From assembly GCF_041886205.1 (NCBI RefSeq), contig NZ_CP169029.1: DNA of 64,000 bases; one strand, 5' to 3'. The first letter of the stretch is position 1. Each line of letters opens with the position of its first letter. The translations under genes and the position numbers were made by a program. The notes beneath the pieces are model-generated. The model was given only the letters and a program-made list of their open reading frames with translations, had not been told where the DNA came from and ran no database searches. Of this stretch, positions 35,249 through 42,199 are shown piece after piece. The DNA is from Escherichia coli. Lineage in GTDB: Bacteria > Pseudomonadota > Gammaproteobacteria > Enterobacterales > Enterobacteriaceae.

Positions 35249-35883
35249 GCTACGCCTCTGTTAAAAATGTTAATCAATGTTAAGTGAGGTAACAATAGCA
35301 AACTTGTACGAAATATGTGTACAGAATGATAAATTAATTTTTTGCATTTAGTGCTAATACATACAAAACAACAAGTTATGATAAAAATTATTGCATCATT
35401 TAAATGACAACCTATACAAAAATTTTCGCCAACTCATCTTTAACTTTTTCCATTTTTTATCAATGTAAAGAAACAGTTATGTTTTGGTATTAAAAGAAAG
35501 ACACCGGAAGATATGTCTGTTACCGTCTTACTCTCACCTCTCCCATTACCCTGGACAGTTAATGCTTACCACCCTTATTTATCGTAGCCATATACGTGAC
35601 GACGAACCTGTCAAAAAAATCGAAGAAATGGTTTCGATAGCAAATCGCAGGAACATGCAGTGTGACGTAACAGGGATCTTACTGTTTAATGGTTCTCATT
35701 TTTTCCAGCTTCTGGAAGGTCCGGAAGAACAGGTTAAAATGATATATCGGGCTATATGTCAGGATCCACGGCACTATAATATTGTTGAACTGCTGTGCGA
35801 TTACGCGCCTGCTCGCCGTTTTGGCAAAGCGGGAATGGAATTATTTGATTTGCGCTTGCACGAGCGAGATGACGTTTTACAGG

Positions 35884-36940
35884 GGCTTTGTTGAATAAAT
35901 CGAACTTTTGCTGAGTTGAAGGATCAGATCACGTATCTTCCCGACAACGCAGACCGTTCCGTGGCAAAGCAAAAGTTCAAAATCACCAACTGGCCCACCT
36001 ACAATAAAGCCCTCATCAACCGTGGCTCCATAACTTTCTGGCTGGATGATGAAGCTATTCAGGCCTGGTATGAGTCAGCAACACCTTCTTCACGAGGCAG
36101 ACCTCAGCGCTATTCTGACCTTGCCATCACGACTGTGCTGGTCATTAAACGCGTATTCAGGCTGACCCTGCGCGCTGCGCAGGGCTTTATTGATTCCATT
36201 TTTTCTCTGATGAACGTTCCGCTACGCTGCCCGGATTACAGCTGTGTCAGCAGGCGGGCAAAGTCGGTTAATGTCAGTTTCAAAACGCCCACCCGGGGTG
36301 AAATCGCACACCTGGTAATTGATTCCACCGGGCTGAAGGTCTTCGGTGAAGGCGAGTGGAAAGTCAAAAAGCATGGCCAGGAACGCCGCCGTATCTGGCG
36401 TAAGCTGCATCTCGCCGTTGACAGTAAAACACATGAAATCATCTGCGCTGACCTGTCGCTGAACAACGTTACGGACTCAGAGGCCTTCCCCGGGTTAATC
36501 CGGCAAACCCACCGGAAAATCAGGTCAGCCGCCGCCGATGGCGCTTACGATACCCGGCTATGTCACGATGAACTGCGGCGTAAGAAAATCAGCGCGCTTA
36601 TCCCTCCCCGAAAAGGTGCGGGTTACTGGCCCGGTGAATATGCAGACCGTAACCGTGCAGTGGCTAATCAGCGAATGACCGGGAGTAATGCGCGGTGGAA
36701 ATGGACAACAGATTACAACCGTCGCTCGATAGCGGAAACGGCGATGTACCGGGTAAAACAGCTGTTCGGGGGTTCACTGACGCTGCGTGACTACGATGGT
36801 CAGGTTGCAGAGGCTATGGCCCTGGTACGAGCGCTGAACAAAATGACGAAAGCAGGTATGCCTGAAAGCGTGCGTATTGCCTGAAAACACAACCCGCTAC
36901 GGGGGAGACTTACCCGAAATCTGATTTATTCAACAAAGCC
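35884..36940 (+). mobile_element. IS903-like (IS5-family) insertion sequence, 1,057 bp, 18-bp terminal inverted repeats GGCTTTGTTGAATAAATC, 9-bp target duplication TTTTACAGG (35875-35883 and 36941-36949)
   Basis: IRs and duplication read directly; the left-end sequence matches the IS903 end as I remember it from Tn903-derived vectors. Confidence 0.85.
35961..36884 (+). CDS. IS903-type DDE transposase (about 307 aa from GTG 35961; the open frame starts at TTG 35916)
   Basis: IS4/IS5-family Y-2-R-3-E-6-K signature (YNRRSIAETAMYRVK) and DGAYD motif present; exact start uncertain. Confidence 0.8.
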   Translation: MAKQKFKITNWPTYNKALINRGSITFWLDDEAIQAWYESATPSSRGRPQRYSDLAITTVLVIKRVFRLTLRAAQGFIDSIFSLMNVPLRCPDYSCVSRRAKSVNVSFKTPTRGEIAHLVIDSTGLKVFGEGEWKVKKHGQERRRIWRKLHLAVDSKTHEIICADLSLNNVTDSEAFPGLIRQTHRKIRSAAADGAYDTRLCHDELRRKKISALIPPRKGAGYWPGEYADRNRAVANQRMTGSNARWKWTTDYNRRSIAETAMYRVKQLFGGSLTLRDYDGQVAEAMALVRALNKMTKAGMPESVRIA

Positions 36941-38043
36941 TTTTACAGGCCGTATTCGACAAAGGCACATCAAAATTTCAGCTAACTTATGATGACAGAG
37001 CGCTACAATTTTTTCGTACTTTTGTCCTTGCAACCGAACAATCAACCTATTTCGAGATCCCTGCCGAAGATTCCTGGCTTTTTATCGCTGACGGATCTGA
37101 TAAAGAACTTGATTTCTATACCCTTTCACCAAATATAAACGACCGCTTTGCCTTTCATCCAATTGTCGATCCCTTATCGCGGCGGATAATCGCTTTTGAA
37201 GCCATTGTGCAAAAAAATGAAGATAGCCCATCAGCTATAGCGGTTGGGCAGCGTAAAGACGGGGAAATCTACAAAGCGGATCTCAAAAGTAAGGCGCTTG
37301 CATTCGCGATGGCACACGCACTTGAGCTCGGTGATAAAATGATTTCAATCAATCTATTACCTATGACCCTGGTTAACGAACCTGACGCAGTCTCTTTTTT
37401 ACTTAATGAAATAAAGGCCAATGCTCTGGTGCCTGAACAAATCATCGTTGAATTTACTGAAAGTGAAGTCATATCTCGGTTTGATGAGTTTGCCGAAGCG
37501 ATTAAATCGCTAAAGGCTGCTGGTATCAGTGTAGCAATTGATCATTTTGGCGCAGGTTTTGCTGGTTTGTTACTCCTGTCACGCTTCCAGCCTGACAGAA
37601 TTAAAATCAGTCAGGAATTGATTACCAATGTTCATAAAAGTGGGCCACGGCAGGCAATTATTCAGGCGATCATAAAATGCTGTACATCACTTGAAATTCA
37701 AGTCAGTGCTATGGGCGTGGCAACACCAGAAGAGTGGATGTGGCTTGAATCCGCAGGAATTGAGATGTTTCAGGGGGATCTGTTTGCTAAAGCTAAATTG
37801 AATGGTATCCCTTCCATAGCGTGGCCGGAGAAAAAATAATTTTCAGCACATTCTTTCACATGATTTCAGTAAATCATCGTGAAAATGAATACGTTATGTT
37901 TAAATTTAATCCACATTAAAAATAATGTTTCATCCAAATTAGCTGAAATCTTATTTATACTTTGTACAATTTTAGCGTATATTGTACAAAGTATTATTGG
38001 GTCGTGTACAGGCGACGGAGATTTATGACCGCAAGGAGGAATT

Positions 38044-38775
38044 GTGGCTTATTACAGCATTGGTGATGTTGCTGAACGTTGCGGGATTAATCCTGTCACT
38101 CTCCGGGCCTGGCAACGCCGCTACGGTTTGTTAAAACCACAGCGCAGTGAAGGCGGACACCGACTCTTTGATGAAGAAGACATACAACGTATCGAAGAGA
38201 TCAAGCGTTGGATAAGTAATGGCGTCCCTGTAGGCAAAGTTAAAGCATTACTGGAAACCACCAGCCAGGATACGGAAGATGACTGGAGCCGCCTGCAAGA
38301 AGAGATGATGTCAATTCTTCGTATGGCTAATCCTGCCAAACTACGCGCAAGAATTATTTCACTGGGTCGAGAGTACCCAGTAGATCAATTGATTAATCAT
38401 GTTTACCTTCCTGTTCGCCAGCGTCTCGTGCTTGATCACAACACCTCCCGCATTATGAGCAGTATGTTTGACGGCGCATTAATTGAATATGCAGCAGCCT
38501 CGCTTTTCGAAATGCGCCGTAAGCCCGGTAAAGAAGCCATTCTGATGGCGTGGAATGTTGAAGAGAGAGCACGATTGTGGCTGGAAGCATGGCGTTTATC
38601 ATTGTCAGGATGGCACATTTCTGTTCTTGCTGATCCCATTGAATCGCCGCGCCCGGAACTGTTCCCGACGCAAACATTGATTGTCTGGACAGGCATGGCA
38701 CCAACAAGAAGGCAAAACGAACTTTTACAACATTGGGGTGAGCAAGGTTATAAAGTCATCTTTCATGCCCCCTAA
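38044..38775 (+). CDS. bluR: MerR-family repressor BluR (YcgE), 243 aa, GTG start
   Basis: Translation recognised ([32 protein letters not shown]...). Confidence 0.9.
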
Positions 38776-39399: not shown

Positions 39400-40024
39400 C
39401 TAAAGTTGGATGCTTAAGAAATGCTTCATAATTCAGTAAGGCATTAGCATAATGGGAATAAAAGTGCAGAGACCATTCCTATGGTTCTAATACTGCCTTT
39501 TTATTGCCGCCCATAGATGTTCAGTACACCAATACTATAAAATTGATATTGAAATGTACTCCCTTGCTTATTGATACATTATTTTATACGGTTAGTTTGC
39601 TTTTAAAAACAACGGGCGTGCTATACGCCTGTTTCATGGCTTAACCCATATTAATTTTGCTTTATTTTTCATCGCGTTATAAGTTTTTAACCAGCAACGA
39701 GTTATCCTTTACTATAAAGTTCAATAGTTGAGACCTTACCCTCATGTCATGCGTATATTCATTATAATGCTCCTTAGACAAAAAAAGCCAACCATGATGG
39801 TTGGCAAAGTGGCACAAAGTAGCATAAAGGCTATGCTTTAATTACAGAAGGTTCAGTCATTTAAATGTATATCGTTTTATCTAAACAGAACTAAAACGAA
39901 GTGAATGATTTCACTTTTCCACTAAATCTCATTTTGTTTAATCTCTGTTGAGATTCCTTGCTTTAAATTTTGTTTTATAAAACAGTAGCTTTATTTTTTA
40001 ATTGATTTTTAGGTAATATAAAAA

Positions 40025-40279
40025 ATGCAAAATCAAGAAATGAATATCCAAATTAAACTATACGCTTATTTAAATAAATATGACACTCGCCTTACAGAAG
40101 AAAAAATTGCGATTGATAAAGCTATTAGAGAATTACATTTTAGCAGCGAGCATGTTGATAACAAAAAAATAATACTGAAGTTACTTTCATTTTTATCATA
40201 TACAGATGATGTTGTTGAAAAAGACATTATCAGAAATACATTGGAAGTGGTTCTTCTTTTTACTTCCGATGATATTTAA
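40025..40279 (+). CDS. AriR/YmgB-family small protein, 84 aa (paralog of ariR)
   Basis: C-terminal half aligns by eye with AriR (NKKIILKLLSFLSYTDDVVEKDIIRNTLEVVLLFTSDDI versus [39 protein letters not shown]); AT-rich surroundings. Confidence 0.6.
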   Translation: MQNQEMNIQIKLYAYLNKYDTRLTEEKIAIDKAIRELHFSSEHVDNKKIILKLLSFLSYTDDVVEKDIIRNTLEVVLLFTSDDI

Positions 40280-40522
40280 TTGGATTCACTAACTTTATTA
40301 TCAAAATTATTGTCCGAACACTACCTTTCTTACTTATGTTTAATAATAATCACTGCGAATGAGGGGCGCACAACTATATTTTTCTCACACCTGTGATGTA
40401 AAAACACGAGAAAATCCAAATAAAGAACAACATTTGCAATTCCCACCAGATGGATTGCATCACACTTTATTATTCAAAATATTTATCAGCATCATTAAAA
40501 GCCGAAGGATAAGACAAAACAA

Positions 40523-40846
40523 ATGAAGTGGATAGTAATTGACACGGTAATTCAACCTACATGTGGTATATCTTTTTCAGCCATATGGGGTGATATGAAA
40601 ATGATCATCTGGTATCAATCTACTATATTTCTCCCTCCTGGTAGTATATTTAAACCGGTTAAATCTGGTATTATCCTTAAAGATAAAGAATATCCTATTA
40701 CTATTTATAACATCGCACCATTCAACAAGGATTTATGGAGTCTACTCAAAAGCAATCAAGAGTGTCCTCCAGGAGAAAGCAAAATAACAAATAAATGTTT
40801 GCATAATAGTTGCATTATAAAAATATGCCCATATGGGCTCAAGTAA
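40523..40846 (+). CDS. iraM: Anti-adaptor protein IraM (stabilises RpoS under Mg starvation), 107 aa
   Basis: Translation recognised ([23 protein letters not shown]...). Confidence 0.85.
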
Positions 40847-40897
40847 AGGGTTTAATATAAATATGCTCGATATGCTATTAATAATACCTACATAAAT

Positions 40898-40925
40898 AAA
40901 ACAACGGGCGTGTTATACGCCCGTT
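40898..40925. terminator. Hairpin (AACGGGCGT-GTTAT-ACGCCCGTT) between convergent iraM and icd; a near-identical copy lies at 39605-39633
   Basis: Perfect 9-bp stem read directly; A-rich upstream, weak T-tract. Confidence 0.45.
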
Positions 40926-40948
40926 GCAATATTAAACACATGTAGTGA

Positions 40949-42199
40949 TTACATGTTCTTGATGATCGCATCACCAAATTCTGAACATTTCAGCAGTTTA
41001 GCGCCTTCCATCAGACGTTCGAAGTCATAGGTTACGGTCTTGGCGTTGATTGCGCCTTCCATACCTTTAACAATCAGGTCTGCGGCTTCAATCCAGCCCA
41101 TGTGGCGCAGCATCATCTCAGCAGAGAGGATGATAGAGCCAGGGTTTACTTTGTCCTGACCGGCATATTTCGGCGCAGTACCGTGGGTGGCTTCAAACAG
41201 GGCGCATTCGTCACCGATGTTTGCGCCAGGGGCGATACCAATACCACCAACCTGCGCTGCCAGGGCGTCAGAAATGTAGTCACCGTTCAGGTTCATACAG
41301 GCGATAACATCATATTCAGCCGGACGCAGCAGGATCTGTTGCAGGAACGCATCAGCGATCACGTCTTTAATGACGATCTCTTTGCCGGTATTCGGGTTTT
41401 TAACTTTCAGCCACGGGCCGCCGTCGATCAGTTCTCCGCCAAACTCTTCACGCGCCAGCTGGTAGCCCCAGTCTTTAAACGCGCCTTCGGTGAACTTCAT
41501 GATGTTGCCTTTGTGCACCAGGGTCACAGAGTCACGATCGTTAGCAATTGCGTATTCGATCGCTGCACGAACCAGACGTTTGGTGCCTTCTTCCGAACAC
41601 GGCTTAATACCGATACCGCAATGTTCCGGGAAGCGAATTTTCTTCACGCCCATCTCTTCACGCAGGAATTTAATCACTTTCTCGGCGTCGGCAGAGTCAG
41701 CTTTCCATTCGATACCCGCATAAATGTCTTCCGAGTTTTCACGGAAGATAACCATATCGGTCAGTTCAGGGTGTTTAACCGGGCTTGGAGTGCCCTGATA
41801 GTAACGTACCGGACGCAGGCAGATGTAGAGATCCAGTTCCTGACGCAGGGCAACGTTGAGAGAACGAATACCGCCACCAACCGGAGTGGTCAGCGGGCCT
41901 TTAATGGCAACGCGATATTCACGAATCAGATCAAGGGTTTCAGCAGGCAGCCAGACATCCTGACCATAAACCTGTGTGGATTTTTCACCGGTGTAAATTT
42001 CCATCCAGGAGATTTTACGCTCGCCTTTATAGGCTTTCTCGACTGCAGCGTCGACCACTTTCAGCATGGCTGGGGTTACATCTACACCGATTCCATCACC
42101 TTCAATGTAAGGGATAATCGGATTTTCAGGAACGTTGAGTTTGCCGTTTTGCAGGGTGATCTTCTTGCCTTGTGCCGGAACAACTACTTTACTTTCCAT
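40949..42199 (-). CDS. icd: NADP-dependent isocitrate dehydrogenase, 416 aa, full length
   Basis: Translation recognised throughout ([38 protein letters not shown]...). Confidence 0.97.

Follow-up and report, generated by a model that had tools for sequence, protein, structure and literature searches.

The background to the locus analyzed here is the control of the ycgZ operon of Escherichia coli by blue light and low temperature. At the ycgZ promoter, BluF antagonizes the repressor BluR upon light and low temperature (PMC3509220; PMC5491885); BluF binds BluR, and BluR leaves the ycgZ operator (PMC3509220). The preliminary description of this DNA, which named BluF as the blue-light and cold antagonist of the repressor of the ycgZ operon, agrees with both papers. 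Mutations in the BluR operator de-repress ycgZ to the same degree as a bluR knockout (PMC3509220), which raises ycgZ about 100-fold at 37°C (PMC5491885). At 25°C, ycgZ expression exceeds its 37°C level 46-fold; that BluF is the sole cause of this induction is the belief of the authors and not a measurement (PMC5491885). MarA, sigma-S, and RcdA all act on the same control region: MarA/sigma-70 activates ycgZ-ymgABC in a salicylate-inducible manner (PMC6900184), and sigma-S also acts on the ycgZ promoter (PMC3509220). Deletion of ycgF (bluF) abolishes the effect of blue light on biofilm formation at no growth cost (PMC9604211).

In the window, by which we mean the whole 64-kb stretch of E. coli DNA that was analyzed, bluF is interrupted by an insertion sequence. 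This allele is very probably a recent IS903B knock-out of bluF in which BluR and its target operon are intact and BluF-dependent induction is lost or strongly reduced. The evidence for this reading, and the alternatives to it, are presented below.

IS903B in the linker of bluF

The element in bluF is a full-length IS903B (IS5 family, IS903 group) of 1,057 bp at positions 35884 to 36940 on the plus strand, its ends being set by terminal repeats and a target duplication. The left terminal inverted repeat (35884 to 35901, plus strand), GGCTTTGTTGAATAAATC, is 18 nt long and matches the right one (36923 to 36940, minus strand) perfectly; beyond these 18 nt, an imperfect match continues out to 33 nt (79%). 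The 18-nt sequence occurs exactly twice in the window, once per end and inverted, with 0.01 occurrences expected by chance. Immediately outside the repeats lie two copies of the 9-bp target-site duplication TTTTACAGG, at 35875 to 35883 (bluF nt 314 to 322) and 36941 to 36949. The boundaries, terminal repeats, and duplication given in the preliminary description, which had called the element IS903-like, are thus upheld.

The transposase gene (35961 to 36884, plus strand) encodes 307 amino acids from the GTG at 35961; the RefSeq annotation of an identical gene starts at the upstream TTG at 35916, which gives 322 amino acids. The reading frame is uninterrupted and specifies a single DDE transposase of the IS5 family, with a score of 357.6 bits against NCBIfam model NF033579 (IS5 family transposase; cut-off, 140) over profile positions 1 to 289 of 289. 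Residues D121, D193, and E259, which we take to be the catalytic triad, are present, and the protein does not differ from that annotated for IS903B in strain HH194M. The copy in bluF is apparently active. All 1,057 bp are 100% identical to plasmid copies in Klebsiella, E. coli, and Citrobacter, and the name used here rests on these copies, which RefSeq designates "IS5-like element IS903B family transposase." Reports of IS903B in Klebsiella and E. coli are frequent and include the insertional inactivation of genes such as mgrB.

The gene bluF starts at 35562, is divergent from ycgZ-ymgA-ariR-ymgC, and lies upstream of bluR. The insertion follows bluF nt 322, that is, codon 107 plus one nucleotide, the position proposed earlier, and falls between the Pfam BLUF domain (residues 2 to 92) and the Pfam EAL domain (residues 173 to 388). 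The 5' fragment (35562 to 35894, plus strand) consists of 107 native codons followed by Gly-Leu-Cys and a stop codon from the IS end (...DDVLQ-GLC-stop), so the product has 110 residues, 3 of them foreign, as had been described. It holds the whole BLUF domain and 15 linker residues. The 3' fragment (36949 to 37839, plus strand) comprises codons 108 to 403, with the linker and the degenerate EAL domain, and still yields EAL-family profile matches. As previously noted, this part lacks a start codon: upstream, its frame is shut by a TGA (36922 to 36924) inside the right IS end, and the earliest ATG, GTG, or TTG in frame is the GTG at 37207, which is BluF codon 194 and lies inside the EAL domain. 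Since the gene is split into a BLUF-only open reading frame and a start-less EAL fragment, no full-length BluF is possible, and the bluF of the window is a disrupted allele (a pseudogene) and not a functional member of the bluF group. The insertion also accounts for the annotation of bluF as two fragments.

When the element and one copy of the repeat were removed in silico, a bluF gene of 1,212 nt and 403 codons, the length given in the preliminary description, was restored. It encodes both the BLUF and the EAL domains, which in the window are never part of one polypeptide, and it is base-for-base equal to the annotated bluF of strain 6EVA. The flanks of the insertion are 100% identical to that gene, and the gene order is the same. 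The window as a whole differs from 6EVA by 15 substitutions over about 61.6 kb, together with two 6-nt in-frame deletions and two IS elements. Because the restored gene equals that of 6EVA and so few substitutions separate the two sequences, we conclude that the insertion is recent.

Intact neighbors and the predicted loss of induction

The gene for the MerR-like repressor BluR (bluR, or ycgE; 38044 to 38775, plus strand) is an intact open reading frame for 243 amino acids whose DNA matches the annotated 6EVA gene at every base, which confirms the earlier statement that it is unbroken. Its closest NCBIfam model is that of the paralogue MlrA. Separate transcription start sites are published for bluR and bluF, and that of bluR was mapped 54 nt upstream of the start codon (PMC3509220), which corresponds to about position 37990 in the window. 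A consensus scan found a promoter-like site at 37954 to 37983 (plus strand), which probably corresponds to this published start. The insertion leaves the promoter region of bluR untouched. Polarity of the IS on bluR was considered and rejected on account of this separate mapped start and the promoter-like site that fits it.

The BluR target operon ycgZ-ymgA-ariR (34408 to 35248, minus strand) is likewise intact, with uninterrupted reading frames for ycgZ (35018 to 35248), ymgA (34703 to 34975), and ariR/ymgB (34408 to 34674), all on the minus strand. In the ycgZ promoter, the BluR operator TGTACAcatatttcGTACA (35305 to 35323, minus strand), a motif defined in PMC3509220, is intact. Upstream of the promoter lies a marbox-like site, GCACTAAATGCAAAA (35340 to 35354, minus strand), with one mismatch to GCAHWWWWTGYYAAA; judged by its sequence, it is a candidate for an activating input that is independent of BluF. 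Across the operon and its control region, the only difference from 6EVA is one base at 35288, close to where ycgZ transcription starts. The possibility that this difference alters the BluR operator was rejected, as the base is not part of the operator and is commonly polymorphic.

The most likely course of events is as follows. IS903B transposed recently into bluF (ycgF), with its usual 9-bp duplication, and came to lie in the linker that joins the BLUF photosensor to the degenerate EAL output. With light- or cold-activated BluF gone, BluR would stay on the ycgZ operator, and the induction of ycgZ-ymgABC by blue light and low temperature would be lost or strongly reduced. The downstream activation of Rcs, with its increase in colanic acid, decrease in curli, and modulation of OmpF, would likewise be lost or strongly reduced. 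Inputs that do not depend on BluF (MarA/sigma-70, sigma-S, and RcdA) would persist. For this strain, we therefore predict that ycgZ-ymgABC no longer responds to blue light and responds much more weakly to low temperature. The pathway influences colanic acid, curli, OmpF, and biofilm formation.

The preliminary description had gone further and regarded the operon as locked in the repressed state. The part of this claim that concerns the loss of BluF-dependent de-repression is a well-founded prediction that we infer from published genetics. The word "locked" goes too far for three reasons: MarA/sigma-70 and sigma-S reach the ycgZ promoter without BluF, the role of BluF as sole cause of the 46-fold induction is a belief of the authors cited above, and the N-terminal domain of BluF, taken alone, contributes to BluR binding in two-hybrid assays. 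With RcdA added to MarA and sigma-S as regulators of this control region, the operon is not expected to be simply off. The size of the regulatory effect in this strain is something that we infer. The phenotype may be slight, given that csgB::lacZ is unaffected by a bluF knockout in standard conditions (PMC3509220).

IS903-type insertions around bluF

Our search of complete genomes raises the possibility that insertions of this kind recur at the locus. In 15 of 5,426 complete genomes, at least 11 other sites are taken by IS903-type elements within a searchable neighborhood of 4.7 kb that runs from ymgC to the bluR-ycgX spacer. They are spread over bluF (4 sites), bluR (1 site), ymgC, and four intergenic positions, and eight of these other insertions also have exact 9-bp duplications. 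Within bluF, an IS903-type element is found at nt 341 in strains HH194M, ET151, and ET450, at nt 131 in PSS-08-2, at nt 741 in TW10690, and, in the opposite orientation, at about nt 525 in LR-62-2. A crude expectation, in which the clonal relatedness of the genomes is ignored, is about 4 elements, so that the excess is roughly 3.5-fold. The window allele is at a distinct site (nt 322, TTTTACAGG), and it is therefore an event independent of the known bluF::IS903 alleles.

The G+C content of the locus is 40%, compared with 48% for the window. In a published study, 19 of 32 IS903 insertions were in H-NS-bound DNA (PMC11335895). The insertion in bluF would need no special explanation, given that IS903 prefers AT-rich, H-NS-bound DNA and that the locus has this low G+C content. 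In the literature searched, we found neither H-NS occupancy of the bluF locus nor a report linking IS903B with bluF. We tentatively suggest, as a possibility that is less likely than its negation, that bluF-bluR-ycgZ is a hot spot at which H-NS-bound AT-rich DNA captures IS903B, with repeated independent loss or rewiring of blue-light and cold control of Ymg/Rcs. If so, the window allele is one more independent event. In a stronger variant of the hot-spot proposal, the losses may be selected in particular hosts. In any case, the allele enlarges by one the small number of independent IS903B insertions in this AT-rich regulatory island, a pattern in keeping with the published view that IS5-family elements are captured by H-NS-bound DNA.

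A related alternative is that the insertion is no neutral accident and was fixed because the loss of blue-light signaling is advantageous in some lineages. The number of sites relative to the crude expectation speaks for it. However, that expectation takes no account of clonality, and the excess is similar to that reported for IS903 in H-NS-bound AT-rich DNA (PMC11335895). In addition, the sites are scattered and include a knockout of bluR, which would have the opposite regulatory effect, and more than 99% of the genomes keep the locus uninterrupted. We consider fixation through such an advantage improbable. For a specialist, the allele is an ordinary, unsurprising IS knock-out.

Residual activities and comparison with known alleles

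The 110-residue stub could retain some activity. If it were a stable flavin-binding protein able to bind BluR, the allele would encode a partial, altered, or constitutive anti-repressor and would not be null. The promoter and start codon of bluF, from which the stub would be expressed, are intact, and its BLUF domain is complete by the Pfam definition. Short stand-alone BLUF proteins such as BlrB (2byc) and PixD (2hfn) are known. Moreover, two-hybrid assays attribute a part of the BluF-BluR interaction to the isolated N-terminal domain, with a construct whose boundaries are absent from the main text (PMC3509220). Two-hybrid binding is not equivalent to anti-repression, however, and the release of BluR from DNA is credited mainly to the acidic EAL domain (PMC3509220). 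The solved stand-alone BLUF constructs are 121 to 163 residues long, and most have a C-terminal extension past the core. In an alignment in which BluF is colinear with BlrP1 (3gfx), the BLUF construct of BlrP1 extends over BluF residues 1 to 133, whereas the stub ends at residue 107 and the foreign Gly-Leu-Cys. An active stub is thus very unlikely, and loss of BluF function is the preferred reading.

Transcripts leaving the element could instead alter the neighbors, rightward into the EAL fragment and bluR or leftward into ycgZ, in which case the outcome would not be a simple loss of BluF. The transposase gene points in the same direction as bluF and bluR, and no terminator-like site separates its stop codon (36884) from bluR. 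The frame remains open in ET151 and PSS-08-2, for which RefSeq annotates an IS-to-EAL fusion open reading frame. Such a fusion is excluded in the window by the in-frame TGA, and the next possible start codon lies only within the EAL domain. A hybrid outward promoter was rejected, as the promoter scan found no outward-facing promoter-like site at either IS end, and a literature search for an outward promoter of IS903B gave incidental matches only. Within the transposase gene there is a terminator-like hairpin (36166 to 36184), and bluR is driven from its own mapped promoter (PMC3509220). The most that rightward read-through could do is to increase bluR expression, which would strengthen repression and not relieve it; the EAL part would remain without a start codon. 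Outward transcription from the IS, which the preliminary description had allowed as an escape from repression, is unsupported, and we regard it as highly unlikely to shape the outcome.

The same insertion site was found in none of the 5,426 complete E. coli genomes in either orientation, the opposite one having been searched with a synthetic query in which the IS was flipped. The junction can thus serve as a strain-specific marker. One further public assembly carries the allele: a Logan contig from SRR28800585 is 100% identical to window positions 32562 to 35912 and spans the left IS junction. Although misassembly classically arises at IS copies and no complete genome of the collection has this junction, we give almost no credence to a misplaced IS copy as an assembly artefact, as a perfect 9-bp duplication surrounds a full-length element whose excision restores the gene exactly and the left junction recurs in that independent short-read assembly.

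The knock-out of bluF by IS903B can be compared with three kinds of known systems. Relative to annotated copies of IS903B, there is no difference in the element itself, and the insertion site alone is new. The bluF alleles of HH194M, ET151, ET450, PSS-08-2, TW10690, and LR-62-2 involve the same gene and the same IS group and are annotated in RefSeq as bluF pseudogene fragments. In HH194M and ET151, the chromosomal IS903B lies 19 bp downstream of the window site and is one synonymous nucleotide away from the window element. The window allele differs in its site and in its frame, which is closed, in contrast to the open frames of ET151 and PSS-08-2. Laboratory knockouts in K-12 (bluF::kan and delta-ycgF) likewise lack full-length BluF and have an intact bluR; the phenotype expected of both is a loss of light and cold de-repression of ycgZ-ymgABC with no growth defect (PMC3509220; PMC9604211). 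Unlike these constructs, the window allele is a natural one, with an expressible BLUF-only stub and an added transposase gene that is codirectional with bluR.

Identity and position of the element in bluF

An IS903-type element with inverted repeats and a 9-bp duplication had been proposed within bluF, and both repeats were found at the proposed boundaries. The 18-nt terminal repeat GGCTTTGTTGAATAAATC occurs exactly twice in the 64-kb window (0.01 occurrences expected by chance), on the plus strand at 35884 to 35901 and inverted, on the minus strand, at 36923 to 36940. The two copies delimit a 1,057-bp element with an exact 9-bp direct repeat, TTTTACAGG, on either side (35875 to 35883 and 36941 to 36949). 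Its internal open reading frame (ORF) matched the NCBIfam profile NF033579 (IS5-family transposase) over the whole profile with 357.6 bits (cut-off, 140 bits), and all 1,057 bp are 100% identical to many RefSeq copies of "IS5-like element IS903B family transposase" on plasmids of Klebsiella, E. coli, Citrobacter, and others. The chromosomal IS903B elements of E. coli strains HH194M and ET151 differ from it by one synonymous base (window 36230). The transposase ORF is uninterrupted, encoding 307 amino acids from a GTG at 35961, or 322 from TTG 35916, the start chosen by RefSeq, and harbors D, D, and E at residues 121, 193, and 259, which we take to be the catalytic triad sites of IS903. Judged by length, terminal repeats, 9-bp duplication, and sequence identity, the element is IS903B. 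Within the transposase gene (36166 to 36184, plus strand), a G+C-rich hairpin precedes a T-rich tail, CCCTGCGCGCTGCGCAGGG CTTTATTGAT; this consensus match might limit read-through from bluF into that gene.

The start of bluF is at 35562, and IS903B lies directly after nucleotide 322, that is, codon 107 plus one base. In silico removal of IS903B and one repeat copy gave a 1,212-nt gene with exactly the 403 codons expected in the preliminary description, identical at every base to the annotated bluF of 6EVA, a closely related strain with an uninterrupted gene. Pfam placed BLUF at residues 2 to 92 and EAL at residues 173 to 388 of the restored protein, and therefore the insertion after residue 107 falls in the inter-domain segment, as had been described. 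Restored BluF is colinear with BlrP1, the Klebsiella BLUF-EAL protein of solved structure. Translation also bore out the description of the two fragments. The 5' ORF ends ...DDVLQ-Gly-Leu-Cys-stop and comprises 110 amino acids, three of them foreign, and the EAL part has no start of its own: a TGA within the right IS end (36922 to 36924) interrupts the bluF frame, and the first in-frame ATG, GTG, or TTG is the GTG at 37207, equivalent to BluF codon 194.

With the element removed in silico, the ymgC-to-ycgX region (4,335 bp) matches that of 6EVA at every position but window 35288, a common polymorphism close to where ycgZ transcription starts, whose variant is also present in strains TW10690 and W409. 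As previously noted, bluR is intact (38044 to 38775, 243 amino acids); a promoter-like site at 37954 to 37983 fits its published transcription start, 54 nt before the start codon. The BluR operator TGTACAcatatttcGTACA (35305 to 35323, minus strand), a marbox-like site (35340 to 35354), ycgZ, ymgA, and ariR are all intact. In the window and 6EVA, ycgZ (35018 to 35248, minus strand) encodes 76 amino acids (231 nt) versus the 78 (237 nt) annotated in the other strains fetched, and the YcgZ, YmgA, and BluR alleles of both differ from the common ones. Between ycgX and iraM, positions 39500 to 41000 are strongly AT rich (28 to 33% G+C); 6EVA has an extra YmgB/AriR-family gene there (WP_047634476.1), and other strains have ymgL and ymgK annotated.

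Probable consequences for regulation of ycgZ-ymgABC

BluF responds to blue light and low temperature by binding BluR, a MerR-like repressor, and freeing the ycgZ operator; bluR, bluF, and ycgZ are each transcribed from a start of their own, and mutating the operator derepresses ycgZ to the same full extent as knocking out bluR (PMC3509220). At 25°C the ycgZ mRNA is ~46-fold more abundant than at 37°C, and bluR knockout raises it ~100-fold at 37°C and ~4-fold at 25°C (PMC5491885). Deletion of ycgF (bluF) eliminates the blue-light effect on biofilm formation, with growth unaffected (PMC9604211). Because full-length BluF cannot be made while BluR and its operator are intact, the best-supported consequence would be that light- and cold-dependent induction of ycgZ-ymgABC, together with its downstream Rcs effects, is lost or strongly reduced. 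The earlier wording, an operon "locked in the repressed state," overstates the case, as other factors also act at the ycgZ control region: RcdA binds between bluF and ycgZ, the ycgZ promoter is salicylate inducible and activated by MarA via sigma-70 (PMC6900184), and sigma-S drives it in stationary phase (PMC3509220). That BluF is the sole cause of cold induction is the belief of the authors of the temperature study (PMC5491885).

It is very improbable that the 110-residue BLUF-only stub keeps some activity. The stub retains the bluF promoter and start codon, and in two-hybrid assays the isolated N-terminal domain contributes to BluR binding, but release of BluR from DNA is ascribed mainly to the acidic EAL domain (PMC3509220). 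Its 107 native residues also end short of BluF residues 1 to 133, to which the solved BlrP1 BLUF construct aligns; our low estimate follows from this early end and the main role of EAL. Outward transcription from the IS, raised earlier, is unsupported: a consensus scan found no outward-facing promoter-like site at the left or right IS end, the EAL fragment lacks a start codon, the transposase gene contains a terminator-like hairpin, and rightward read-through would merely add bluR transcript.

Age and distribution of the allele

Over its full 64 kb, the window is separated from 6EVA by 15 substitutions, two 6-nt deletions in ypjA that preserve the frame, and two IS elements, and by this near-identity the IS903B insertion is recent. 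A search of 5,426 complete E. coli genomes, covering both orientations, did not find the same junction. The junction-specific 110-residue product is recorded for one other assembly only, on a short-read contig (run SRR28800585) that is 100% identical to window 32562 to 35912 and stops 29 nt into the IS. With this contig as independent evidence, a perfect duplication flanking the element, and a gene exactly restored on excision, an assembly artefact is ruled out.

The ypjA/ehaD deletions (window 25591 to 25597), in an adhesin-like autotransporter gene, look like repeat-number variation. The second recent insertion relative to 6EVA is a 1,310-bp IS3-family element (6534 to 7843) with terminal repeats TGAACCGCCCCGGG..., orfA (6588 to 6914), orfB (6911 to 7801), and an ATT duplication (6531 to 6533 and 7844 to 7846). 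It presumably resembles IS629/IS1203, and 100% identical copies occur on E. coli and Salmonella plasmids. It interrupts a gene for a 478-residue leucine-rich-repeat protein (start, 5614), uninterrupted in 6EVA (WP_001491036.1).

IS903-type insertions across the locus

In 15 of the 5,426 genomes, the ~4.7 kb from ymgC to ycgX, the span that the search could join, holds IS903-type elements, at no fewer than 11 different sites; four of the sites are in bluF and one is in bluR, and others lie in ymgC and in the ycgZ-bluF, bluF-bluR, and bluR-ycgX spacers. The ymgC-ycgX loci of 12 of the 15 genomes were fetched (L001 to L008 and L010 to L013). Four genomes were assigned to the ycgZ-bluF spacer site, H4 to H6 being placed with H3 by identical alignment spans and scores. 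All nine sites checked have exact 9-bp duplications. In ET151 (L002, 2941 to 3840) and PSS-08-2 (L007, 2691 to 3839), the frame is open across the right IS end, giving an IS-to-EAL fusion ORF listed in RefSeq as "cyclic diguanylate phosphodiesterase," with a CTG within the terminal repeat as the annotated start in ET151.

The number of chromosomal IS903-like matches in the collection (~4,600) predicts about 4 at this locus by chance, a crude figure that ignores clonal relatedness. The locus has 40% G+C versus 48% for the window. In a re-analysis of mapped IS903 insertions, 19 of 32 were in H-NS-bound DNA (PMC11335895), and therefore target preference by itself would produce an excess of roughly three-fold. 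Our literature search turned up no direct data on H-NS occupancy here; the insertion pattern, counted without phylogenetic correction, is consistent with the published preference. We consider it possible, though rather doubtful, that this regulatory island captures IS903B recurrently and that blue-light signalling has been repeatedly lost in IS903B-rich lineages.

The bluF::IS903B allele is an ordinary IS knock-out, a new insertion of a well-known element into a well-characterised, non-essential regulator gene. IS903-type elements interrupt bluF at nucleotide 131 in PSS-08-2, at nucleotide 341 in HH194M, ET151, and ET450, at about nucleotide 525 and in the opposite orientation in LR-62-2, and at nucleotide 741 in TW10690, and RefSeq annotates these alleles as pseudogene fragments.
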